A stretch of DNA of 61,500 nucleotides from a virus. Taxonomy: Duplodnaviria > Caudoviricetes. Shown here one piece after another: positions 28,920 to 61,231 of the stretch. The DNA is taken from positions 1 through 61,500 of the IMG/VR virus record IMGVR_UViG_3300047509_000139; one strand, given 5' to 3'. How positions within the stretch are numbered: the first letter of the stretch is position 1; every line of letters starts with the position of its first letter. The notes beneath the pieces were generated by a model, which was given only the letters and a program-made list of their open reading frames with translations, did no database searches and was not told where the DNA came from. The position numbers and the translations under genes are program-made.

Positions 28920-29226
28920 ATGACCGATTCCTCCCAGTAGCGCAGTAGATACTCAGCGAGTTGTTCGGCGGACGCACTTCTAGCGTCCAACGTGTTCGAA
29001 TCGTTCATTGTTTCCCCAAACCCACGAGGAACAGTCGTGGGGGGCCGGATGGCGGGTTTGGGAGTTGGTTTGGAACCACCCAAGCCCCGTGTCCGACTGC
29101 TTGCCTACGCCGCGGGGATCAGCCGCTTGCGGTTGAACATCAGGCTTTCAAACTATACTACGACGCGGACCGAATTGCAATAGAAAACTATATATCAAGT
29201 AGCGGACAGAAAGCAACGGGAAAATA

Positions 29227-29255
29227 TTGCAATCGCGCCGGAGACGGCTTATAAT
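29227..29255 (+). promoter_or_regulatory. promoter of tRNA block 1
   Basis: TTGCAA-17 nt-TATAAT. Confidence 0.85.
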
Positions 29256-29261
29256 CCTTGC

Positions 29262-29333
29262 ATGGACCACGCAACCATGCGACTAAGCAGTTCACTCCGG
29301 TCCTTGTTATCACTCTGTTTGTATAGTTGGTAA
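29262..29333 (+). CDS. leader peptide 1 MDHATMRLSSSLRSLLSLCLYSW
   Basis: ATG 6 nt after TATAAT; 15 of the last 16 codons are Ser/Leu/Cys/Tyr/Trp, the amino acids of block 1. Confidence 0.75.
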   Translation: MDHATMRLSSSLRSLLSLCLYSW

Positions 29334-29339
29334 TCCCAC

Positions 29340-29430
29340 CGAAGGGATGGGAGCAGTTGGCCGCTCCGCTCGTTTGCTAAACGAGAAATCCTTTTGGGAC
29401 ACGAGGGTTCGATTCCCTCCCCTTCGGCCA
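29340..29430 (+). tRNA. tRNA-Ser(GCT)
   Basis: Cloverleaf, long variable arm, loop TTGCTAA, G73-CCA. Confidence 0.85.
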
Positions 29431-29432
29431 TA

Positions 29433-29443
29433 GCTCTTTGACA
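29433..29443 (+). promoter_or_regulatory. boxA-like antitermination site
   Basis: GCTCTTTGACA versus rrn boxA GCTCTTTAACA. Confidence 0.65.
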
Positions 29444-29455
29444 TCTGAATCTTTT

Positions 29456-29543
29456 GGGTGGTTCGTCTAGCGGCAATGGCTCCTGGCTGTAACCCAGGCG
29501 ACGGTCTCCGTCTACATAGGTTCGAGTCCTATACCACCCACCA
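29456..29543 (+). tRNA. tRNA-Tyr(GTA)
   Basis: Cloverleaf with variable arm, loop CTGTAAC, CCA. Confidence 0.92.
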
Positions 29544-29546
29544 TGT

Positions 29547-29631
29547 GGCCCTCTGGCGTAATTGGCAGCCGCGCTGGTCCTAGAAACCAGTGCCTTCGGG
29601 CGTAAGAGTTCAAGTCTCTTGGGGGCCACCA
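29547..29631 (+). tRNA. tRNA-Leu(TAG)
   Basis: Loop CCTAGAA (C33), variable arm, CCA. Confidence 0.92.
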
Positions 29632-29639
29632 AAGTTTTT

Positions 29640-29723
29640 AGGCCCGTGGTGGAACGGTTTACGCAGCGCGCTCAAAACGCGTGGTCTTCGGACATGAGGG
29701 TTCGACTCCCTCCGGGCCTACCA
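29640..29723 (+). tRNA. tRNA-Leu(CAA)
   Basis: Loop CTCAAAA, variable arm, CCA. Confidence 0.92.
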
Positions 29724-29728
29724 AAGAT

Positions 29729-29804
29729 GGGGGATAGGCTCGACTGGGAGAGCGCCGGACTCCAAACCCGGTATTGCAGAGTTCGAATCTCTGATCCCCC
29801 GCCA
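29729..29804 (+). tRNA. tRNA-Trp(CCA)
   Basis: Loop CTCCAAA, G73-CCA. Confidence 0.9.
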
Positions 29805-29816
29805 AGAACATAATAC

Positions 29817-29891
29817 CCAGGGGATGCTGATCGGTTAAGCGGTCGCCTGCAAAGCGACTTGTGGCGGGTTCGATTCCCGCTCCCTGGTCCA
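29817..29891 (+). tRNA. tRNA-Cys(GCA)
   Basis: Loop CTGCAAA, U73-CCA. Confidence 0.9.
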
Positions 29892-29892
29892 C

Positions 29893-29979
29893 GGAAGGTA
29901 GGGGGCTCTGGGATGCCCAACCAGCTTCGAATACTGGCCCTCCGCAAGGATGATCGTTCGAATCGATTACCTTCCGCCA
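29893..29979 (+). tRNA. tRNA-Ser(CGA), 8/4 fold
   Basis: GGAAGGTA/TACCTTCC acceptor, ATCG/CGAT T stem, loop TTCGAAT. Confidence 0.8.
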
Positions 29980-29986
29980 CTTTCAC

Positions 29987-30071
29987 GGAGAGTACGGCAG
30001 TAGGATCTGCAATCGGGTTTGAATTCCGACGCTCCTTCGGGATGGCCGTTCGAGTCGGCTACTCTCCTCCA
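29987..30071 (+). tRNA. tRNA-Ser(TGA), 8/4 fold
   Basis: GGAGAGTA/TACTCTCC, GCCG/CGGC, loop TTTGAAT. Confidence 0.8.
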
Positions 30072-30079
30072 TGCCTTGC

Positions 30080-30164
30080 AGAGAGCGCCGCCGATGGTTG
30101 GCGACCGGTTTGGAACACCGGGGATTCCTTCGGGAATGCGGTTCGATTCCGCCGCTCTCTGCCA
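30080..30164 (+). tRNA. tRNA-Ser(GGA), 8/4 fold
   Basis: AGAGAGCG/CGCTCTCT, GCGG/CCGC, loop TTGGAAC. Confidence 0.85.
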
Positions 30165-30173
30165 AAATACCTG

Positions 30174-30202
30174 TTGCAATGTTCAAAACTTTGCTTTAGT
30201 AT
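30174..30202 (+). promoter_or_regulatory. promoter of tRNA block 2
   Basis: TTGCAA-17 nt-TAGTAT. Confidence 0.75.
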
Positions 30203-30253
30203 TGAATTGCGAAGGAACTGCCCTACCCAGTAGGCATTTAGACTGTTTAGACA

Positions 30254-30346
30254 ATGATTCGAACCGTCCAATTCGGGAGAAGGCCGCAAGGAACAAATCC
30301 AACGTGCGCCGCCATCATGGCAGACACGCATGAAGGCGGTCCTTAG
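30254..30346 (+). CDS. leader peptide 2 MIRTVQFGRRPQGTNPTCAAIMADTHEGGP
   Basis: 30 codons, 26 different; no Ser/Leu/Tyr/Trp; stop codon overlaps the antiterminator strand. Confidence 0.7.
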   Translation: MIRTVQFGRRPQGTNPTCAAIMADTHEGGP

Positions 30347-30384
30347 CCCCAGTTGAACAGGTGTTGTTAGTTTTCAACGGGGCT
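30345..30384 (+). promoter_or_regulatory. antiterminator hairpin
   Basis: AGCCCC-A-GTTGAA (30345-30357) pairs with TTCAACGGGGCT (30373-30384), which overlaps the terminator 5' arm. Confidence 0.75.
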
Positions 30385-30413
30385 GATCGAAAGATTGGCC
30401 CCGTTTTGTTTTT
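30376..30413 (+). terminator. intrinsic terminator (attenuator) before tRNA block 2
   Basis: AACGGGGCTGATC-GAAA-GATTGGCCCCGTT followed by TTGTTTTT. Confidence 0.85.
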
Positions 30414-30414
30414 G

Positions 30415-30488
30415 CGGGGTGTAGCTGGAAGGTCGAGCCCGTGGCCTGGGACCACGAGATTGGAGTTCAATTCTCCACACCCCGACCA
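30415..30488 (+). tRNA. tRNA-Pro(TGG)
   Basis: Loop CCTGGGA (C33), CCA. Confidence 0.88.
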
Positions 30489-30495
30489 TGAGTTT

Positions 30496-30573
30496 CGGGA
30501 TGTAGCGCAGTCTGGTCAGCGCACACGCCTCGGGCGCGTGGGGCCGCTGGTTCGAATCCAGCCATCCAGACCA
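30496..30573 (+). tRNA. tRNA-Pro(CGG)
   Basis: Loop CTCGGGC, CCA. Confidence 0.92.
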
Positions 30574-30656
30574 AGTTCGCTGCGGCGAGAATCGTCACGG
30601 AAGACGGGATGCTGCTGTAAGGGCGATAACCGTAGCACCCGCGCCACAGCGATTCA

Positions 30657-30668
30657 GTTCTTTGACAA
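30657..30668 (+). promoter_or_regulatory. boxA-like antitermination site
   Basis: GTTCTTTGACAA, preceded by a branched hairpin at 30577-30652. Confidence 0.65.
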
Positions 30669-30688
30669 TTGAAAGTCTTGATTCATAA

Positions 30689-30762
30689 GCGGGCGTGGTA
30701 TAGAGGCCGTGCCCTGGGCTTCCAACCCAGAGACGAGGATTCGAATTCCTCCACCCGCTCCA
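30689..30762 (+). tRNA. tRNA-Gly(TCC)
   Basis: Loop CTTCCAA, U73-CCA. Confidence 0.9.
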
Positions 30763-30770
30763 ATTTGCTT

Positions 30771-30845
30771 GCTGGGTTCGTCTAGCGGCTAGGATTGGGC
30801 GTTGCCAATGCTCAGACACGGGTTCGAGTCCCGTACCCCGCACCA
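30771..30845 (+). tRNA. tRNA-Gly(GCC)
   Basis: Loop TTGCCAA, CCA. Confidence 0.88.
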
Positions 30846-30846
30846 T

Positions 30847-30921
30847 GCCGGAATAGCTCAGGTGGAAGAGCACCTCACTCGTAACGAGGAGATCTGGTTT
30901 CGATTACCAGTTCTGGCTCCA
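30847..30921 (+). tRNA. tRNA-Thr(CGT)
   Basis: Loop CTCGTAA, CCA. Confidence 0.9.
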
Positions 30922-30995
30922 GCCGGTATAGCTCAGTGGAAGAGCAGTTGCTTGGTAAGCAACCGACGAGCGTTCAATTCGCTCTGCTGGCTCCA
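30922..30995 (+). tRNA. tRNA-Thr(GGT)
   Basis: Loop TTGGTAA, CCA. Confidence 0.92.
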
Positions 30996-31001
30996 AGTTT
31001 T

Positions 31002-31076
31002 GCCGCGCAAGCATTGCTGGCGATGCGCTGCTCCTGTAAAGCAGTGAATTCCGTTCGATTCGGAAGCGTGGCTCCA
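31002..31076 (+). tRNA. tRNA-Thr(TGT)
   Basis: Loop CCTGTAA (C33), CCA. Confidence 0.88.
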
Positions 31077-31077
31077 T

Positions 31078-31154
31078 CCCCTCCAAGCTCTCCGGGTGGG
31101 CGCTCGTCTGATACGCGAGTTATCGACTGTGTTCGATTCACAGGGAGGGGACCA
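31078..31154 (+). tRNA. tRNA-Ile(GAT)
   Basis: Loop CTGATAC, CCA. Confidence 0.85.
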
Positions 31155-31201
31155 AGTTCTATTGCGGAACCCGGTGCGTTATGCCGTAGCATATAAGCTT
31201 A

Positions 31202-31550
31202 ATGGCGAACCGATACGCATACGTAAAGAAGGCAATTGCTAAAAGGAAACTCTGGGCCGACAAACTTAAGGATCGTCCATGTGAGCGATGTGGTATCAGG
31301 TATCCGCCATGTTGTCATGGAGTGGCATCATAGAGATCGAGCCAAGAAGTCCTTTGGGATTGGCCCAGGCAATTTTACGCGCAGTCGCAAGTTGTTACTT
31401 GAAGAGATTGCCAAGTGCGATTTGTATTGCGCTAACTGTCATCGTTTGGTTGAGGAATCATTGCGGCGAAGTGGACCGGTGCCATGCGAGGCTCATAACC
31501 TCAGCGAGTCCGTTCAACTCGGAACGCCGCAACCATTTTTGGGGTGCTAG
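31202..31550 (+). pseudogene. HNH endonuclease inserted in the tRNA array, frameshifted
   Basis: KDRPCERCGIRYPP in one frame; VMEWHH...EEIAKCDLYCANCHR in the next; extra base near 31290. Confidence 0.8.
31462..31535 (+). tRNA. tRNA-Met(CAT), initiator-like
   Basis: TGCGGCG/CGCCGCA-A-CCA, loop CTCATAA. Confidence 0.8.
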
Positions 31551-31616
31551 CTCATTCAGGAGAGCGCCGGTCCTGCAAACCGGAGGCGCTGGGGGCAGAG
31601 CCCAGGCATTCCACCA
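31541..31616 (+). tRNA. tRNA-Ala(TGC)
   Basis: G3:U70, loop CCTGCAA (C33), atypical T loop GGCAGAG. Confidence 0.85.
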
Positions 31617-31621
31617 TTTTC

Positions 31622-31697
31622 GCAGGGGAGGCCGTCGTGGTCGAGGCGCTGGCCTGAAAAGCCAGACAAGCACGTTCGATTCGTGCCCCCTGCACCA
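31622..31697 (+). tRNA. tRNA-Phe(GAA)
   Basis: Loop CTGAAAA, CCA. Confidence 0.88.
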
Positions 31698-31700
31698 GAT

Positions 31701-31775
31701 GTGACCGTGGCCGAGTGGCTTAGGCGTGCGGCTGTGAACCGCTCCACGAGAGTTCAATTCTCTCCGGTCACCCCA
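31701..31775 (+). tRNA. tRNA-His(GTG)
   Basis: Loop CTGTGAA, C73-CCA; T rather than G at -1. Confidence 0.9.
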
Positions 31776-31782
31776 TTGTTGA

Positions 31783-31857
31783 TGGCGGGTCGTTCAGTGG
31801 CCAGGACGGCAGATTTTGAATCTGTTCACGCCGGTTCGAGTCCGGCCCCGCTAACCA
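31783..31857 (+). tRNA. tRNA-Gln(TTG)
   Basis: U1-A72, loop TTTTGAA, CCA. Confidence 0.9.
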
Positions 31858-31858
31858 T

Positions 31859-31933
31859 AGCCGGTTCATTCAGCGCTTAGGATTCCTGGCTCTGACCCAG
31901 GCCACGAAGGTTGAAATCCTTCACCGGCTACCA
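31859..31933 (+). tRNA. tRNA-Gln(CTG)
   Basis: Loop CTCTGAC; D loop GC and T loop TTG (swapped 19:56 pair). Confidence 0.85.
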
Positions 31934-31940
31934 TTTTCAA

Positions 31941-32018
31941 GCCCCCGTCGTTCAATGGATTAGGATACTGCGCTACGAACGCAGAGATTTGTAGGTTCGA
32001 GTCCTACCGGGGGTACCA
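31941..32018 (+). tRNA. tRNA-Arg(ACG)
   Basis: Loop CTACGAA, A20, CCA. Confidence 0.92.
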
Positions 32019-32022
32019 TTTT

Positions 32023-32100
32023 GACCGTGTAGCTCAGTTGGAAACGAGCGCTGTCCTCCGAAGGCAGAGGCCGCTGGTTCGATCCCAGCCACGGTCACCA
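32023..32100 (+). tRNA. tRNA-Arg(CCG)
   Basis: Loop CTCCGAA, A20, CCA. Confidence 0.92.
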
Positions 32101-32108
32101 AAGTTTAT

Positions 32109-32183
32109 GGGCGCGTCTTCCAGCGGCCAGGATGGGGCTCTGTCTAAGCCTCGACGGGAGTTCAACTCTCCTCGCGCCCGCCA
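32109..32183 (+). tRNA. tRNA-Asp(GTC)
   Basis: Loop CTGTCTA (U37), G73-CCA. Confidence 0.88.
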
Positions 32184-32189
32184 TATTAC

Positions 32190-32266
32190 GTCCGCATGGT
32201 GCAGACGGCTAGCATACCTGATTCTCAATCAGGAGATCGCGGGTTCGAGTCCCGCTGCGGACGCCA
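32190..32266 (+). tRNA. tRNA-Glu(CTC)
   Basis: Loop TTCTCAA, CCA. Confidence 0.92.
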
Positions 32267-32267
32267 C

Positions 32268-32343
32268 GGCCCAGAGCACGAACGGATGAGTGCCCTGACT
32301 TTCAATCAGGTGACAGTGGGGTCAGCACCCACCTGGGCTACCA
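32268..32343 (+). tRNA. tRNA-Glu(TTC)
   Basis: Loop CTTTCAA; atypical T loop GTCAGCA. Confidence 0.8.
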
Positions 32344-32350
32344 AGTTTTC

Positions 32351-32425
32351 GGGACCAAAGCTTAGATGGCGAAGCAGGAGGCTCTTAACCTTCAGAACTC
32401 GGTTCGATTCCGAGTGGTCCCACCA
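32351..32425 (+). tRNA. tRNA-Lys(CTT)
   Basis: Loop CTCTTAA, CCA. Confidence 0.9.
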
Positions 32426-32431
32426 AGTTGT

Positions 32432-32518
32432 TGGCAGGTACCCGAGCGGTAGCAGGGATCTGGCTGTTAACCAGACGGCGCAAGCCCATCGCAGGTTCGA
32501 ATCCTGCCCTGCCAGCCA
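32432..32518 (+). tRNA. tRNA-Asn(GTT) with long variable arm
   Basis: U1-A72, G73, loop CTGTTAA, GGC-GCAA-GCC variable hairpin. Confidence 0.88.
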
Positions 32519-32526
32519 ACATTCGA

Positions 32527-32600
32527 TTCCTGGTCGTCCAACGGCAGGGCGGTGTTCTTATAAAGCACTTACGGTGGTTCGACTCCACCCCAGGGAACCA
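32527..32600 (+). tRNA. tRNA-Ile(TAT)
   Basis: Loop CTTATAA, A73-CCA. Confidence 0.88.
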
Positions 32601-32601
32601 T

Positions 32602-32680
32602 GCGGGAGTCACCGGTATTGGCATCCGGTCCTAGTCCTACAAACTAGTGATTGCTGGTTCAATTCCAGCCTCCCGTACCA
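32602..32680 (+). tRNA. tRNA-Val(TAC)
   Basis: Loop CCTACAA (C33); 5-bp D stem. Confidence 0.85.
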
Positions 32681-32685
32681 TTTTC

Positions 32686-32761
32686 GGGAAGGTAGCTCAA
32701 ACGGCAGAGCGCAGTCCTTTTAAGTCTGGCGATCGGGGTTCGAGGCCCCGCCTTCCCACCA
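32686..32761 (+). tRNA. tRNA-Lys(TTT)
   Basis: Loop CTTTTAA, CCA. Confidence 0.88.
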
Positions 32762-32763
32762 AG

Positions 32764-32842
32764 ATCCCCGTATCGGTCCTGTTTCCTAAACAGGTAAAGC
32801 CGTAATTGGACGATGCGAGTTCGAGTCTCGCCGGGGATACCA
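32764..32842 (+). tRNA. non-canonical tRNA-Arg(CCT), D arm absent from its usual position
   Basis: 7-bp acceptor, CCTGT-TTCCTAA-ACAGG, CGT-AATTGG-ACG 3' of the anticodon arm, canonical T arm, CCA. Confidence 0.75.
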
Positions 32843-32843
32843 C

Positions 32844-32920
32844 GGGCGCGTACCGGCCTCGGTTTCTACCCGAGTTCACCGTAATGGACGATGCGGGTTC
32901 AAGTCCCGCCGCGCCTTCCA
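32844..32920 (+). tRNA. non-canonical tRNA-Arg(TCT), D arm absent from its usual position
   Basis: 7-bp acceptor, CTCGG-TTTCTAC-CCGAG, CGT-AATGG-ACG 3' of the anticodon arm, canonical T arm, CCA. Confidence 0.75.
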
Positions 32921-50843: not shown

Positions 50844-53800
50844 TTACGCGGTCAGAATACCGCCGCGAAACTGTCTTGTGCCGTTTGCTAGCGAGGCAGT
50901 CAGGCTCTCAGTCAATCCTATGTGGCCGCCTACGGAGAAATAGCCGGAATTTAGTAAAACGTTGGTATCTACTGAGATGCCTCCGGTTACCTGGAGCCGC
51001 AAGCCGCTTCCGTCATCCGACGTACGACCAAGATAGATCAGGCTGGTCGTTGTGATCCGCATGGCCTCAGCGTTGTTGGTAAAAAACGCCATCGGCAGGA
51101 ACGTACCTGCACCTGTTCGTCCGCTCGATACTGCTATATAGGTACTAGCGATTGCAGCGAAACTTCCGACCGACGCATTGGTCGAAGCCGTCACGCTCAC
51201 GAAAGAATTGATTGAGACGATGGCTCCAGCAGACAGTGATGCATCAGTGGAAGTGAGCCCAACCAATAACTGCCCGGCAGGCAACAGCCGCATTCGCTCA
51301 TTCGGATTGAGGAAGAAGCGGATCGGCAATAGCGCTCCGGTTCCAGTCTTGCCGGAAGATAAGTCAGCTCCAGCTCCGGTAGTAATGCCAAGAGCGAGAC
51401 ATGAACAGTTGGTAGCTGTATCGGCAGCAATGATCCCGTCCGCACTAACGATTGAACCTGGGAGTAGGCTGAGATCCGTAGAAGTGAATCCGAACAGCGT
51501 CGCCCCGTTTGTCAGCATCCTCACGCGCTCCGCCCCGTTGACAAAGAAGACGAGAGGAAGTTGGGTGCCTGATCCGGTAGCGAATGAAGACAGAGAGACG
51601 TAATTTCCTGCTATAGCGGCGAGACTGGCAACCGATGCGTTCGTCGAAGCCGTAACGCTTACGAAGACGCCTTTTACGATCAGGGCACTCGTAGACAGGC
51701 TTACGTCGGTAGAAGTAAGTCCAAAGAATCCGCTGCCGGCAATGTCCAACGGCCCTACTGCGCTTACGGCCCCTGCACCACTAACGATAAACGTGCCCGA
51801 GTTGGCCTGAAACGCTAGACTTGCTCCGGTAGCATACGATTGAATCAATCCGGATACGTTGACGGCACCGAGAACTTGAAGTTTGGCTCCGCTCCCATCG
51901 TCTGAAGTAGCGCCTACAAACACACTGCCCGGTGTCAGCGAGATACTCGGCACCGTAACCGCGCTGCGGTTGACCTCCATCCATACGAGGCTCGAAGCGC
52001 CAGTATCACTAGTGACGTAGAACAGAAGAGAATTTCCACTTACTGCACTAGCCCAGACCTTGTCATCTGTTGGGGCGGTCGTGTTGTTGTAACCCATTGG
52101 AGCCGACCCGCCCGCGCCCTGAACGAAGATCCCTCCGTCGCCGTGGATGACGCAACCGGAACTAGAAGTACCGACCAGGAAGGCGCTGCCTGAGATCGTT
52201 GAGGAGGAGAAGTCGATGCCGTTGAGGACCGTACCGCCGATGGTGCGCATAATGGTCCCGAACGTAGCATTGATCGGGAACGCGCCGTGGGCATCGCTAA
52301 TCAAGATTCCGTCCGTCCAGGTAACCGCACCTGTCGCGTTCGACAGCGCGAGCATGGAGTCATACGACGCACCGCGAACGGCGTCGTCAGGCCGTCCGCT
52401 AAGAGCCAGGATTTCCTTGATAGCTACCGACGAACCAGTCTGGGCCGCCGTATTCATCTCGCAGGCGAGGAGCGCGAACATGTGCTGGGCTGCTGATGTA
52501 AGAACTGCTTCCGCGCCCAACGCAAAGATGGAGCCTAACGGAGTGAGTGCCGTACCGCGATCTGATGACTGGGCATTGCACTGTGCACTGATCGCCTCAT
52601 ACTGGCGGTTGAACGGACTGCCGGCATCACTTGGACCTACGAGATAGGAATTGACGGACAAGCTCTGACGCCCGCCTCTCATCCCAGTGCCGCCGTAAAA
52701 ATGATTGATGAGCGAGGCTAAGACAAAGCCAGAACCAACATTCAATACGTCTGTACCGATCTCAATATCGGTGAAGCCGTTCCACGTATGCGTCCCGAGG
52801 GTGGCAATACCGATGGTATTGGTATACTTCCAGAGGACGTTGTTGCCGCTGTCACGGAAGTGAACCTCATGCTCTGGTAAAGCGTTGGTTCCTGCCAAGT
52901 TGATTCGAGTCAGGTCGAAATAATCGCCTTGGGCCTGCGACCACCGGCCTTTTACTCGGAACACGTTTCCTTCGCATCCATAGGCATCGACTATGAATGA
53001 ATCTCCGCCTAATCCTGTGGTTGCCGAACCTGGCGTTTGTCCCGTAGCGGTATCGAGCAACAGTCTGGCAAAGTAAGTACTGACTGACGTATTGCCGGTA
53101 AGTGACACGCTCCCGAGTACTTGTACCGGAGCGCCGGTGCCGTCATCAGAGATATGGTTAACGAGCACGTTTCCGCCGGATGTCAGGATGAAGTCTGGAT
53201 TAATATTGCCTTTTCCGCTCAGCCCGATGCCGGAGTATAAACCTGAGGTCCCGTAAGCCAATTCGATGTAGCCTCGATTGCCGCTTACGCCAGAAAAGCT
53301 GGCATCGACGGTAGGCTGAATGCGCCAGGCGCTCGTAGTCCATGACGATCCGGCGAGAGTGCGGTGCTGTACAAACAACAACCTGTCGTTATCGCCGCTG
53401 TTACCCATGAACTCAACGGCGTAGTTCATGGCGTCGAGGGTCGTGGCTAAGGAAGAGGTAGACTGCACCGCTAAGCCAGTCGCATTGTTTACACCGACTC
53501 CTCCGGTATTTACGGATAACAGGGCCGATGGAGAAGTAGTGCCTATTCCGACCTTAGCTGTCACGTCTACTGTGATCGCTCGCGTCGCGCCCATGAAGAC
53601 AGCTATCGGGAGAAGCGTCCCGCTGTTCGTCTTATTGCTGCTGAGGGCTACATAGTTTCCGGCGATGGCAGCGAAGCTCCCCACGGAAGCGTTCGACGCG
53701 GCAGTAACGCTCACGATGGCATTGCTCGTAAGCAGCCCGCCGACGCCGCTGAACACCACGTCCGTAGTCGATATGCCGACCAGAACTGGGTGAGTATTGG

Positions 53801-56072
53801 AAGAATGAAGAAACGTTCCAGAATCCAACCACAGAGAACTCAGGTCGCCGCCAACTCCTCCGGAACCGGCACCGCTCAGGCGTATCAATACCGTCGAATC
53901 CGGAGGGAACAGGATTACTACGAGGCCGGTCGCGTCGAACTGGTCCGGCAGGATTACGAACGTGGCCCCCGAATCAAAAGTATTGGCCGCGTTCGCGACT
54001 ACCTTTACGTAGTTGATGTCCGTGGAGATCTTCTTGATAGCCAGGCGATGATCTGGCACGCTGGTATTCACGAGAAGCGTAAAGATCAATCCACCTGGAA
54101 GCGTTACCGCAGCCCCGTTGCTGTGAGTAGCCGGAGTCGTTCCTGACGCTCCGCGTTCTACCGTCGGTGTCGCCGTCAAGGCTCCGCTGATGATCCGCAT
54201 GCGCTCCGTACCGCACAGGGTGTCTGTACCGTTGACCGTTCCCGCACCGCTAGACGATAGCGTAATAACTTCTTGGGTTCCCGGCGCTGGCGTAGTTGTG
54301 ATTGCGGCACCGAGCGTCAGGGCGGTAGGTTGGGTAATAGTGCTAGTATCGCACTCAACCAAGTCATCAGTAGAAAGTTGCGTACTGCTAGCAGTTATCT
54401 TTCGTGCTAATCCGAGAGGCCCGGAACCTCCTCCTCCGCCGCCAACGCCGGAAATGCTTCCGGCGGAAGAACCACCCAACGTAGAACGCCAGTCCCAGTT
54501 AATCAGCGAACCTTTGATCGCCGTAGCTTTCCAGAGCGACAGGTTGTCTTGGGAGGTCAGAACTACGGAGTCGATCAGGAAGTCGTCATTGACGCCGAAG
54601 TCGCTCAGCTCGATGTGGATCATTTGCCCGATGGCAAGTCCACTGCGGTACGTTTCAATCTCGAAGCGCGATGGAACCTTGCCGTACTGAAGCACGGTTG
54701 CCTGAGCCTGAGCCTGACCATCGTTTGCTCCAGGACCGGTAGAAGCAGCGTCGAACACTTGCTCGTAGTATCCGGTGCCACTCTCCAAGGCTGCGCGATT
54801 GCCTACTTCCGTGTCGTCGCTGTAAAGAAAGATCGGATTGATGTTGTACTGATAGGTTATATGAAGATTCTGCGCAGACGTGAGTACTGTACCGCCCGCA
54901 TCTTGAGTGATCACGGTCGAGTCTTGGTTCCAATACCAGTCTTTGCCGGTATCTGACCCGAGGACGCCGACCGTCTTCATTACTCCGTTTACATCGATCG
55001 TCGGAGTTGCCCCGACCGGATGCGTCGTATAGAAGACGGTCTTCACCGAATCACCGGCAAACGTATCGACGACGCTTCCCCCTGTCAGTGATTGGCCCAG
55101 ATGGACGTACGCGCGGTTCAAATACTGCTCACGCGTCTCGGTGTCTTTAATATGAACGAGGACGTTGCCATCGCTGAGGTCGGAGTCGTCTACGTTGAAC
55201 GGAGCCGCCGTGGTCGTTTGCTTCGCCAGAACCACCACGCGGTACGGCGTGGTGTACCAATACCATACGTCGGTGCCGCTGGCCAACGTGCAAAGGTTGT
55301 CGAACCAATTGCCCACCGTGTCATACTTGATGCTCGATACGCTGGGAATGGTAGGCCCGGTAATAAGGCTCAGTCCGATGCCATCGTCGTATAGAGAGAA
55401 GCCGATCCCAACTCCGGTATCATGGATGGCCTGGAAGATGGCATCCAGCGTCATGTTGCTGAACGTCTGTCCAGGGATCACGCGCTTGTATAGCAAAAGA
55501 TCCCACGAGACGCACGAGCACGTTACCATGATCAGGTTGAGGTTCGAAGACGCCCGCTGCGAACCAGGAAGGTTGTCAAGTTCAACTTGATCTACCGTTC
55601 CTCCGAAGATTGCACCGATCACGTCGTCGATCAGCATCACCGGTTGGCCCTGGAACGGTAGGGCGGTAAGCCCATAAGATCCACCTGGGTCACCGAACGC
55701 TCCGGCTTTGAACTTCAGCGTGTCCCTAACCGTCAAAGAAGAGTCGTATTCGATGGAGCCGGACTCCGCAGAGATCGCGCGAAAGATGATGCCGTTTGGA
55801 GTGTCAGCGGTGACGGTGGTCAATGCAGCGTTCGCCAAGCTGCACGCTCCAGGTCCGGACACGGAAACGATGGTCGTGACGTGCAGCCCGCCCAACGCGC
55901 CGGCTCCGATGATCGTGACCGGGCATCCTACATCCGCAGACGTCAGGGTCTGCCCGGCAGGCAAGCCCCACCCCGTTACGTTGAAGCCGAACGCCGTAAT
56001 ATTGAGACCTCCTACGTACCCAAGGCGGAGCTTCAGCGTTGAAGTAGTATTCGGAGATGGAGTGAATCCCAT
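50844..56072 (-). CDS. large tail protein/tail fibre
   Basis: 1742 aa, Gly/Ser/Thr-rich, follows tape measure; VGIGTTSP and internal repeats. Confidence 0.85.
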   Translation of the reverse strand: MGFTPSPNTTSTLKLRLGYVGGLNITAFGFNVTGWGLPAGQTLTSADVGCPVTIIGAGALGGLHVTTIVSVSGPGACSLANAALTTVTADTPNGIIFRAISAESGSIEYDSSLTVRDTLKFKAGAFGDPGGSYGLTALPFQGQPVMLIDDVIGAIFGGTVDQVELDNLPGSQRASSNLNLIMVTCSCVSWDLLLYKRVIPGQTFSNMTLDAIFQAIHDTGVGIGFSLYDDGIGLSLITGPTIPSVSSIKYDTVGNWFDNLCTLASGTDVWYWYTTPYRVVVLAKQTTTAAPFNVDDSDLSDGNVLVHIKDTETREQYLNRAYVHLGQSLTGGSVVDTFAGDSVKTVFYTTHPVGATPTIDVNGVMKTVGVLGSDTGKDWYWNQDSTVITQDAGGTVLTSAQNLHITYQYNINPIFLYSDDTEVGNRAALESGTGYYEQVFDAASTGPGANDGQAQAQATVLQYGKVPSRFEIETYRSGLAIGQMIHIELSDFGVNDDFLIDSVVLTSQDNLSLWKATAIKGSLINWDWRSTLGGSSAGSISGVGGGGGGSGPLGLARKITASSTQLSTDDLVECDTSTITQPTALTLGAAITTTPAPGTQEVITLSSSGAGTVNGTDTLCGTERMRIISGALTATPTVERGASGTTPATHSNGAAVTLPGGLIFTLLVNTSVPDHRLAIKKISTDINYVKVVANAANTFDSGATFVILPDQFDATGLVVILFPPDSTVLIRLSGAGSGGVGGDLSSLWLDSGTFLHSSNTHPVLVGISTTDVVFSGVGGLLTSNAIVSVTAASNASVGSFAAIAGNYVALSSNKTNSGTLLPIAVFMGATRAITVDVTAKVGIGTTSPSALLSVNTGGVGVNNATGLAVQSTSSLATTLDAMNYAVEFMGNSGDNDRLLFVQHRTLAGSSWTTSAWRIQPTVDASFSGVSGNRGYIELAYGTSGLYSGIGLSGKGNINPDFILTSGGNVLVNHISDDGTGAPVQVLGSVSLTGNTSVSTYFARLLLDTATGQTPGSATTGLGGDSFIVDAYGCEGNVFRVKGRWSQAQGDYFDLTRINLAGTNALPEHEVHFRDSGNNVLWKYTNTIGIATLGTHTWNGFTDIEIGTDVLNVGSGFVLASLINHFYGGTGMRGGRQSLSVNSYLVGPSDAGSPFNRQYEAISAQCNAQSSDRGTALTPLGSIFALGAEAVLTSAAQHMFALLACEMNTAAQTGSSVAIKEILALSGRPDDAVRGASYDSMLALSNATGAVTWTDGILISDAHGAFPINATFGTIMRTIGGTVLNGIDFSSSTISGSAFLVGTSSSGCVIHGDGGIFVQGAGGSAPMGYNNTTAPTDDKVWASAVSGNSLLFYVTSDTGASSLVWMEVNRSAVTVPSISLTPGSVFVGATSDDGSGAKLQVLGAVNVSGLIQSYATGASLAFQANSGTFIVSGAGAVSAVGPLDIAGSGFFGLTSTDVSLSTSALIVKGVFVSVTASTNASVASLAAIAGNYVSLSSFATGSGTQLPLVFFVNGAERVRMLTNGATLFGFTSTDLSLLPGSIVSADGIIAADTATNCSCLALGITTGAGADLSSGKTGTGALLPIRFFLNPNERMRLLPAGQLLVGLTSTDASLSAGAIVSINSFVSVTASTNASVGSFAAIASTYIAVSSGRTGAGTFLPMAFFTNNAEAMRITTTSLIYLGRTSDDGSGLRLQVTGGISVDTNVLLNSGYFSVGGHIGLTESLTASLANGTRQFRGGILTA

Positions 56073-60553: not shown

Positions 60554-61231
60554 TTACAACAAACGTGTTTGCTCAGCGATATTCTCGAAATTCGGCAGCT
60601 GCTCCAGCATGATACCGACCGCGCGGAGGCACTTTTTGATGTCGTCCGCGGTTGCCTTCCCGGCATCCATCGCGACCTTCCACCGCTGAAGTATGGGAAT
60701 GGCTTCCGATGCCCGGTGAAGCCCGAGGCTCATCTCGATCAGCTTCGCGACGTAGACGCGGTGAACCGAGACGTCACCGGCGAAGTCTTTCTTCTTTGAC
60801 GTCACGCGGTAGTAGTAGAATATGCCGCGTGCCGCTTCCAGGGCTGGCTTTGAGATGACGTGCTGCTCAGGCTTGTTGCTACCGAACTCCAGCGGTGTTT
60901 CCAGCGTAGTTACCACCCTGGCTTCCTGGACGGATTCCTTTGGAAGCATAGCGAACGCGTCGAGCATGCGTTGGAGAAAGCCCGCGATCTGTGGAGCCGT
61001 CGCCGTGTTTGCGTGCATGCGCTCCTGCCAGTACCGAAGCTCTGGGCGAACGTTGGCGACGTGGAAGACGTTCGACATCCAGTCGATCACGATGGCAAGG
61101 CACTTCTCGGTCGCTTCCAGGTTTGGAATCCGGCCGGACGGCAGTTCCTCGATGGGCTTCGCTTCCAGCGTATAGTGCTTGAGAACCACGCGCGCTGCAT
61201 GGAGCGCGGCTGCTGATACGCGGTGAGCCAT
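60554..61231 (-). CDS. hypothetical protein with two similar halves
   Basis: RVSAAALHAARVV and VISKPALEAARGI internal repeat. Confidence 0.7.
   Translation of the reverse strand: MAHRVSAAALHAARVVLKHYTLEAKPIEELPSGRIPNLEATEKCLAIVIDWMSNVFHVANVRPELRYWQERMHANTATAPQIAGFLQRMLDAFAMLPKESVQEARVVTTLETPLEFGSNKPEQHVISKPALEAARGIFYYYRVTSKKKDFAGDVSVHRVYVAKLIEMSLGLHRASEAIPILQRWKVAMDAGKATADDIKKCLRAVGIMLEQLPNFENIAEQTRLL

Follow-up and report, generated by a model that had tools for sequence, protein, structure and literature searches.

Classical leader-peptide attenuators are known for the trp, his, leu, thr and ilv amino-acid operons, tnaC and mgtL are Rho-dependent sensors built on upstream open reading frames (uORFs), and leaderless polycysteine open reading frames (ORFs) act as attenuators in mycobacteria. 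T-box riboswitches bind uncharged transfer RNA (tRNA) directly and control synthetase or amino-acid genes, and boxA and Nus factors mediate antitermination in the rrn operons. Phages, plasmids and bacteria widely carry long supernumerary tRNA arrays, and we know of no tRNA operon that reads the performance of its own products through a leader peptide. A candidate for such an operon is described here in a 61,500-base IMG/VR record of a soil phage, the whole of which was analysed and is referred to as the window. The element under study is an ORF of 23 codons at positions 29262-29333, which precedes an array of 30 tRNA genes; the evidence supports its being a genuine leader, conserved and linked to the block of tRNAs that follows. 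Our reading, to which we give somewhat better than even chances, is that a translated leader peptide gene acts as a ribosome-speed sensor gating the first block of the array; this verdict is drawn from sequence statistics and comparison.

Supernumerary arrays of this kind are described in the main text of PMC8421152 as L-arrays: long, patchy in distribution, horizontally spread, present in bacteria and phages, and neighboured by homing endonucleases. According to the same text, the array of the Anabaena PCC 7120 trn operon undergoes induction upon impairment of translation, its control is assigned to direct repeats in the promoter, and rtcB is reported to be co-regulated with it. Induction under translational stress is known to have been shown only for Anabaena, and the route from signal to array to have been worked out only for its promoter element. 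The words leader, attenuat-, terminator and small ORF are absent from the main text of PMC8421152, and its supplements, which hold 5′-RACE (rapid amplification of cDNA ends) maps, may bear on the leaders of other arrays. The literature searched gave no account of leader peptides before tRNA genes or tRNA arrays. PMC12121999 adds the topAI-yjhQ uORF of E. coli as a Rho-dependent uORF sensor, the sequence of the E. coli rrnB boxA is quoted in PMC2176067, and PMC4633059 deals with small proteins and leaderless transcripts of mycobacteria.

A leader ORF ahead of the first tRNA block

The features of the first block are as follows.

29227-29255, plus strand: predicted promoter P1 (-35 hexamer, 17-base spacer and consensus -10), 10 of 12 consensus positions
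29262-29333, plus strand: leader ORF 1, predicted to be leaderless, 23 codons plus TAA (29331-29333), from the ORF listing, with homologues in relatives
29283-29330, plus strand: putative sensor stretch, in which Leu, Ser, Cys, Tyr or Trp is specified by 15 of the 16 codons, top of the open 16-codon windows
29340-29430, plus strand: tRNA-Ser(GCT), first gene of block 1 (ARAGORN), first gene of every related array, with covarying stems
29433-29444, plus strand: rrn-type boxA-like site, with a core conserved after tRNA-Ser(GCT)
29456-30164, plus strand: rest of block 1, tRNAs Tyr, Leu(TAG), Leu(CAA), Trp, Cys, Ser(CGA), Ser(TGA) and Ser(GGA) (ARAGORN)

Leader ORF 1 opens with seven unrelated codons, followed by 16 codons that comprise six Leu, six Ser and one each of Cys, Tyr, Trp and Arg. 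The block behind it holds nine tRNAs, in the order Ser, Tyr, Leu, Leu, Trp, Cys, Ser, Ser, Ser, and the amino acids that they serve are exactly Ser, Tyr, Leu, Trp and Cys. The stretch at 29283-29330 is the single best of the 78,607 open 16-codon windows found in the six frames of the contig, the next independent place reaching 13 of 16, and residues of this set number 15 in the frame of the ORF versus 7 and 3 in the other two frames. Under strict wobble rules, 12 codons of the leader are decoded by block-1 tRNAs, and eight of the nine anticodons, the number proposed by the earlier sequence-only reading of the window, are covered; taking the ORF as a whole, 71 of 65,608 windows equal it in both the number of cognate codons and the coverage of anticodons. 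The leader also favours the rarer synonymous codons of the phage (P = 0.005), a preference that fits a sensitive sensor and also fits the lower G+C of the spacer, the G+C of the leader being below that of the genome.

The position of the ORF relative to its promoter is equally tight. The -10 hexamer ends at 29255 and the ATG lies at 29262, with six bases between them and a pyrimidine preceding the ATG, which bears out the distance given by the sequence-only reading. Since the usual distance from a -10 hexamer to the transcription start falls there, the A of the ATG is the most likely first base of the transcript, which would make the ORF leaderless. The -35 hexamer is common to P1, to the divergent promoter of the replication genes and to the promoter-like site P2 of the second block, and promoter-like sites in the region are not above the number found in shuffled sequences (3 versus a mean of 2.1). 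A Shine-Dalgarno site is absent at most of the well-defined gene starts of the window (e.g., 45632, 47710, 50844-56072 and 60554-61231), which suggests that the host relies little on such sites, in keeping with leaderless translation.

At its other end, the ORF stops at 29333, leaving a gap of six bases before tRNA-Ser(GCT), again as claimed earlier. In the terminator scan of the window, neither the gap separating ORF and tRNA nor the first tRNA itself gave an intrinsic terminator, the sole terminator-like match being the anticodon arm of the tRNA itself; a function of this arm as a cryptic terminator was considered and dropped, as it is not conserved (by eye). Folding of the region gave no antiterminator overlapping the end of the ORF, unlike the situation at the second leader, and neither T-box nor any other Rfam leader family matched at the leader.

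Conservation of the leader in four lineages

Relatives of the array were sought with patterns taken from the window. A metagenome scan with three T-loops of block 1 gave at least 119 loci, and among the matches listed at least five were true relatives of the array (BLAST), with 71-77% identity over the tRNAs. They share a gene order that begins with Ser(GCT), a Leu group of between one and three genes, Trp, Cys and Ser(CGA) and, past a spacer of about 300 bases, continues with Pro(TGG), Gly, Gly, Thr and further genes. When a pattern was built on the leader's conserved start, it picked up three arrays in genome contigs, in metagenome-assembled genomes assigned to Solibacteraceae, Bryobacterales and Bryobacteraceae, and a DNA search of 401 genomes sampled from that order showed 6 of them to carry arrays. 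With a looser leader pattern, matches were obtained in 28 of 401 genomes, and the two checked for tRNA genes (G728 and the query's own, G007) both carry arrays; in a phylum-wide sample of 401 genomes, the only full match was in the query's own genome. Bryobacterales-type Acidobacteriota thus have homologous arrays in their chromosomes, and such arrays are also present on contigs from soil metagenomes. The metagenome contig L275 carries block 1 twice in tandem (162-2111); a promoter and a leader of its own belong to each copy, with a few substitutions separating the two leader variants.

The leader occurs in these arrays in four forms, one per lineage.

Form A, the window: 23 codons, stop-to-tRNA gap of 6 bases
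Form B, three variants: 26 codons, stop-to-tRNA gap of 5 bases
Form C, four variants: 28 codons, stop-to-tRNA gap of 20 bases
Form D, two variants: 26 codons, stop-to-tRNA gap of 32 bases

Forms A, B and C have their first seven codons in common, and in all three the ATG lies exactly six bases past the -10 hexamer; form D is unrelated to them in sequence and has a purine-rich stretch ahead of its ATG. Differences in leader length are whole codons, and the stop of form C is TAA, TGA or TAG at one position. Residues of the set Leu, Ser, Cys, Tyr and Trp number 15 in form A, 14-15 in B, 17-18 in C and 16 in D, and Cys, Tyr and Trp are present in every form; in form D, the 16 of 26 residues that belong to the set include one each of Tyr, Trp and Cys. 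All ten leaders have 14-18 such residues in the frame of the ORF versus 3-11 in the other two frames, and Pro, in turn, occurs 0-1 times in frame versus 1-6 times off frame. Against a background of acidobacterial DNA (229,494-249,697 open windows, the leaders themselves included), the windows that reach the same in-set count with Cys, Tyr and Trp present are 11 for form A, 66 for B, 9 for C and 27 for D. Since the composition is kept, in a frame-specific manner, where the sequence is not, selection appears to act on what the frame encodes and not on the peptide sequence or base composition alone. None of the four lineages has an intrinsic terminator after leader 1, the gaps there measuring 5-32 bases, and the earlier claim that this block lacks one thus holds beyond the window.

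A codon-anticodon covariation (CTA with Leu(TAG) versus CTG with Leu(CAG)), apparent when the window was set against form B, was rejected because it fails in forms C and D.

The second block carries a leader and a terminator

The block that follows offers a comparison within the same array.

30174-30202, plus strand: promoter-like site P2, with the -35 hexamer and spacing of P1, under the promoter-scan cut-off
30254-30346, plus strand: leader ORF 2, 30 codons, ahead of Pro, Gly, Thr and Ile tRNAs, with homologous ORFs in all four lineages
30347-30414, plus strand: antiterminator arm (30347-30383) overlapping an intrinsic terminator (30376-30405) and its T run, the terminator having 13 pairs and a z score of -3.3
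30657-30668, plus strand: second boxA-like site, after two tRNA-Pro genes, near-identical to the site in the 16S-23S spacer of G007

Leader ORF 2 has 12 codons cognate to the tRNAs of its block and covers eight of their eight anticodons, 253 of 55,303 windows doing equally well. The antiterminator arm begins right after the stop of the ORF and can pair with the 5′ arm of the terminator, which ends one base before tRNA-Pro. These features indicate that block 2 carries a classical leader-plus-terminator attenuator, as judged from its predicted folds. The ORF and the terminator have both been retained across the four lineages, with stem sequences that differ, from which it follows that the array does use ribosome-mediated attenuation; block 1 differs from block 2 by the absence of the terminator.

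Leaders in other tRNA arrays

The generality of the design was assessed by scoring upstream ORFs for residues of their own tRNA block against permuted pairings of leaders and blocks. The scan, a blind one, covered 267 tRNA blocks from all the loci fetched, of which 233 were non-duplicate and 158 could be scored, with the following result.

p < 1e-3: 14 blocks, 1.7 expected from permuted pairing
p < 1e-4: 8 blocks, 0.55 expected from permuted pairing
p < 1e-5: 5 blocks, 0.10 expected from permuted pairing

The 14 best blocks comprise nine in forms A-D and five in the unrelated arrays L354, L295, L359, L267 and L280, with G+C contents from 33% to 62%. The ORFs of these five stand ahead of tRNA blocks of the Leu/Ser type and are rich in precisely the amino acids that those blocks serve. 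Behind the ORF of L354, L359 and L267, as well as of the weaker case L355, comes an intrinsic terminator whose end lies immediately ahead of the first tRNA. A hand count over six unrelated leader families showed that, of 14 cases in which a block has a Cys, Tyr, Trp or Gln tRNA, all 14 have the residue in the leader, and that where the block is without that tRNA, the residue is absent from the leader in 9 of 10, although picking by score favours these "absent" cells.

Two loci of an array family from gut metagenomes, L355 and L305, present ORFs with a Shine-Dalgarno site and the same three first residues, at weaker p values of about 0.004-0.006. In L355, the ORF lies ahead of a Trp/Ser/Glu/Arg/Cys/Gln block, has 16 of 30 residues in the set and is followed by the terminator mentioned above, and in L305 it lies ahead of a Lys-Lys-Leu block with 7 of 14 residues in the set.

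A broad viral scan for a -10 hexamer, an ATG and a T-loop gave at least 119 loci, and the most striking case among the matches listed was an ATA-rich ORF five bases before tRNA-Ile(TAT). This tRNA, in more than 115 viral contigs (L017, L036 and about 113 more, L129-L246), stands almost always behind a small conserved protein gene, either 5-8 bases away or overlapped by its stop, which encodes a zinc-ribbon-like protein of about 38 residues or a hydrophobic, ATA-rich one of 25-29 residues. As a regulatory parallel, the ATA-rich ORF was set aside and lends weak support, since it belongs to these conserved small protein genes, in genomes that use ATA often; their conservation at the protein level also means that the mere abutment of a stop codon on a tRNA does not imply regulation. 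No cognate enrichment was seen in four other ORFs whose ends lie 0-9 bases ahead of a tRNA. The leader design is not universal, since the Anabaena trn operon, the only array that has been studied experimentally, has a different gene order and a leader with only a 4-codon ORF.

Taken together with the two blocks of the window, these data raise the prospect of an undescribed class of "sampler" leader peptides, with codons for every amino acid that the tRNAs behind them serve, that gate blocks in long tRNA arrays of phages and bacteria in a closed loop via decoding speed, most members having a terminator and the present lineage having instead a terminator-less read-out before an rrn-type boxA. 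We regard the existence of such a class as nearly an even question, stopping a little short of calling it probable.

The boxA site and a possible read-out

The sequence-only reading had also pointed to a boxA-like site after the first tRNA, and its core is indeed present after tRNA-Ser(GCT) in nine of nine sequences from four lineages. The same core occurs in two of the four rrn flanks examined, the 16S-23S spacer in G007 and the leader of the 16S gene in G728, genomes that stand in for a phage host assigned by inference. Support for the boxA-like sites comes from this conservation and not from their number, the count of the pattern not being above that in shuffled sequences (2 versus a mean of 1.7). 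The site after the first tRNA is thus a conserved rrn-type boxA, which would make control by Rho and Nus factors the most natural read-out. A pairing between the leader and boxA was also considered and dropped, being no better than in shuffles (z scores of -0.3 to +1.9 in seven sequences).

In the mechanism proposed, the ORF at 29262-29333 would belong to the first block of a long, horizontally mobile array common to the phage and to Bryobacterales-type Acidobacteriota chromosomes, and a ribosome would load on the bare 5′ end of the transcript starting at the ATG. Past the seven unrelated codons, the ribosome would meet a series of codons for Leu, Ser, Cys, Tyr and Trp that samples every amino acid of block 1, and its transit speed would report how well these codons are decoded, something that could fall by tRNA cleavage, poor charging or general translational stress. 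A ribosome stalled on the leader of about 80 bases would block the loading of Rho and allow RNA polymerase to get to boxA, where the polymerase would turn termination-resistant and transcribe the whole block. When decoding is fast, the ribosome would be gone, the leader, richer in C than in G, would lie bare and Rho would halt the polymerase early, slow decoding consequently giving a higher tRNA output.

The decision is placed before boxA because there is no terminator hairpin and an rrn-type boxA is conserved after the first tRNA. Rho is favoured as the read-out because an untranslated array needs protection from Rho, as boxA implies, because C moderately exceeds G in the leader, and because known uORF sensors are alike; taken alone, a read-out through Rho before boxA is a tentative proposal, possible but on the doubtful side. 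The earlier suggestion that block 1 uses a switch of its own is supported in part, its Rho/Nus version being the favoured candidate, while the other version, sequestration of the 5′ strand of the tRNA, fares worse on the structural data that follow.

Alternative explanations

Two structures in and around the leader have to be considered.

29264-29303, plus strand: conserved 5′ stem, 29264-29268 with 29299-29303, enclosing the first 14 codons, part of the window's best fold and of the consensus for eight sequences
29334-29352, plus strand: hairpin of the sequence-only reading, joining the spacer to the 5′ acceptor and D-stem strand of the tRNA, -9.9 kcal/mol

A sensor that gates block 1 has several observations to contend with, which are gathered here as points that weigh against it. 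The 5′ stem, which spans leader bases 3-7 and a site about 35 bases downstream and has one pair changed on both sides in the window (a compensatory change), could account for part of the conservation of the leader sequence, and it would mask the 5′ end if the mRNA is leaderless. In any random frame, no residues are commoner than Leu and Ser, and the leader is without a TCG codon despite the Ser(CGA) gene in block 1. Across relatives, the match between leader and block holds by amino acid and not by individual anticodon, so that the anticodon match first read in the window does not extend to them: CTA occurs in some leaders of arrays without a Leu(TAG) gene, TCC and TCA occur in some without matching Ser genes, and in one lineage a Tyr codon is retained where the block has no tRNA-Tyr. 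The base content of leader 1 (C 0.28, G 0.19) places its excess of C over G at only the 82nd percentile of plus-strand windows. The loci scanned for generality were fetched by patterns from this window or by the promoter/ATG/T-loop motif and are therefore not a random sample of arrays, and phage tRNAs commonly have, ending a few bases ahead of them, short ORFs that can be small protein genes of the ordinary sort. Finally, translation of the ORF, the point of transcription start, the direction of control and the part played by Rho are each predicted from sequence.

The last but one of these points leads to an unlikely alternative, in which the ORF encodes a small protein with its own job, such as an amphipathic or membrane peptide, and is merely sited before tRNA genes. 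The more than 115 viral contigs with small ORFs 5-8 bases before tRNA-Ile(TAT), conserved at the protein level, show that such an arrangement exists; for the present leader, however, it is the composition and not the peptide sequence that is conserved between lineages A-C and D, rare residues track the tRNAs of the block across unrelated arrays (hand count), and the neighbouring block has a textbook attenuator on the same plan. An origin of the open frame as a by-product of composition, in a region acting only as RNA, either as a pyrimidine-rich loading site for Rho or as a 5′ control structure, seems rather improbable to us. The ten leaders all have more C than G (C 0.25-0.33, G 0.17-0.23) and the conserved 5′ stem with its compensatory change points in the same direction, but the enrichment is confined to the frame of the ORF, Pro and Phe are avoided in frame though a pyrimidine-rich tract should yield them, and the purine-rich Ser codons AGC and AGT are in use; moreover, the stop position is kept with three different stop codons, lengths differ by whole codons and the ATG stays six bases after the -10 hexamer. 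Chance, finally, would be helped by the T-rich nature of a promoter-proximal spacer, the codons for Leu, Ser, Cys, Tyr and Trp being mostly T-first and the G+C of the leader below the genome's, yet a chance ORF is very unlikely for a stretch that ranks first of 78,607 windows and is kept in four lineages, one of them of unrelated sequence.

The switch put forward in the sequence-only reading, in which a ribosome at or near the stop would set the pairing of the spacer with the 5′ strand of tRNA-Ser(GCT) and hence its folding and cleavage by RNase P, is in our judgement a poor prospect. The hairpin does fold at -9.9 kcal/mol, as had been noticed, but 44 of 200 shuffled sequences fold equally well (z score of -0.8), and in a context of 172 bases the best fold is the cloverleaf and not the hairpin. 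Across the lineages, a hairpin bridging stop and tRNA is at chance level in A, weak in B and absent in C, its only strong form being a spacer-to-D-arm hairpin in D (z score of -2.95); the stop-to-tRNA gap ranges from 5 to 32 bases, and of the nine tRNAs only the first would come under such a switch.

The array and its genomic context

The window, for which a completeness of 73% is estimated, has genes for the replication and the tail of a phage (a DnaB-like helicase, a primosomal protein, helicases, methyltransferases and a tape measure protein). In the first 43 kb, other long frames are nearly all on the minus strand, and the 30 tRNA genes predicted by ARAGORN are on the plus strand at 29340-32761; leader ORF 1 is located in the divergent promoter region that separates the replication genes from the array.

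29152-29180, minus strand: divergent promoter of the minus-strand replication genes, 9 of 12 consensus positions, -35 hexamer identical to that of P1
29893-29979: Ser(CGA), without an Rfam match
29987-30071: Ser(TGA), without an Rfam match
31002-31076: Thr(TGT), without an Rfam match
31078-31154: Ile(GAT), without an Rfam match

The tRNAs of the array are unusually diverged, since cmscan with Rfam (E up to 1) gave no match for these 4 of the 30 and tRNA-Ser(GCT) itself scores weakly, at only 28.4 bits with the tRNA-Sec model. Additional tRNA-like elements missed by ARAGORN were noticed at 31541-31613 (38.4 bits with the Rfam tRNA model), 32844-32916 (21.3 bits with the tRNA-Sec model), 32267-32345 and 32762-32843, the last two by eye only, from anticodon-loop-like hairpins that would read TTC and CCT. 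Within the array, the gene at 31202-31550 has a Cys pair, His-His and then a second Cys pair with a His, a motif by which we take it to be endonuclease-like; it is broken across two frames near 31300-31310, where a 7-base direct duplication is found, and its stop overlaps a tRNA-like element.

The flanks of the arrays in relatives are ordinary chromosomal genes, among them an outer-membrane barrel, DHDPS, enolase-type enzymes, an MFS transporter, NrfD and a ferredoxin. Directly downstream of one chromosomal relative, in the same direction, lies a gene for the RtcB RNA ligase (L370, 109-1377, minus strand). The array is supernumerary, since 31 of the 45 tRNA matches in G007 lie outside it and 14 within it.

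Searches for relatives of the phage itself gave six viral loci with the primosomal-like protein and two with DnaB, and a third phage protein found no viral loci. None of the eight phage-related contigs has a tRNA near the matched gene, and five whole records are without any tRNA match. Among GenBank phages, 116 records matched, each with about one to two tRNA genes and at most 4% of the query; plasmids gave no match, and an exact 32-base piece of the leader was found in no viral contig. A look-up of sequencing runs gave no RNA run containing this stretch, and contigs from two soil DNA sequencing runs gave near-zero cover over 29241-29387, the differing pieces being tRNAs of other organisms.

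Comparison with known systems and significance

If true, the sampler leader would provide a direct link between a failure of decoding and the supply of tRNA, with possible sources of failure in the degradation of host tRNAs during infection, in anticodon nucleases or in poor charging. The borrowed tRNA sets of phages would then bring along their own sensor of demand, and the switching-on of arrays under translational stress or tRNA damage would be explained. The terminator-less block before boxA would, in addition, be a small natural model in which to examine the connections between translation, Rho and Nus-type antitermination.

Regulation of the proposed type belongs to a known kind, leader-peptide attenuation; what would be new are the tRNA genes as its target, a leader that samples several amino acids per block, and the terminator-less form before a boxA. 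With the classical attenuators, the window shares a short leader ORF rich in codons that report on the regulated product and, on the reading proposed, ribosome speed as the signal, and its second leader (30254-30414) also shares the overlapping antiterminator and terminator. The differences are that tRNAs and not biosynthetic enzymes would be regulated, that five amino acids are sampled in place of one repeated, and that leader 1 has neither terminator nor antiterminator and is predicted to be leaderless. The Rho-dependent uORF sensors resemble leader 1 in having a short ORF and no intrinsic terminator, the stalled ribosome deciding in those systems on early termination by Rho; at leader 1, the role of Rho is a proposed one, the codons are matched to the tRNA genes downstream and a boxA lies behind the first gene. 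The mycobacterial attenuators, in turn, provide a parallel to what is proposed for leader 1, a regulatory short ORF on a leaderless transcript, rich in the amino acid sensed, although they precede genes of Cys metabolism in Actinobacteria, whereas leader 1 precedes tRNA genes, in a phage and in Acidobacteriota, and holds several amino acids.

The T-boxes have in common with the proposed sensor that expression is coupled to the state of a particular tRNA, but they do so by direct binding of the tRNA, and the window leader gave no T-box match. As in rrn antitermination, the array has a boxA core that matches the rrn operons of related genomes; it sits, however, behind a leader ORF and one tRNA and not directly behind the promoter, and binding of NusB/NusE to it is a prediction. 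With the L-arrays, finally, the window array agrees in its length (30 tRNA genes), its character as an extra set (G007), its patchiness (6 of 401 genomes) and its carriage by a phage, as well as in the endonuclease-like gene and in the RtcB gene beside one relative. From the L-array of Anabaena it differs in gene order and in its sampler leader ORF, the counterpart in Anabaena being a leader with only a 4-codon ORF.

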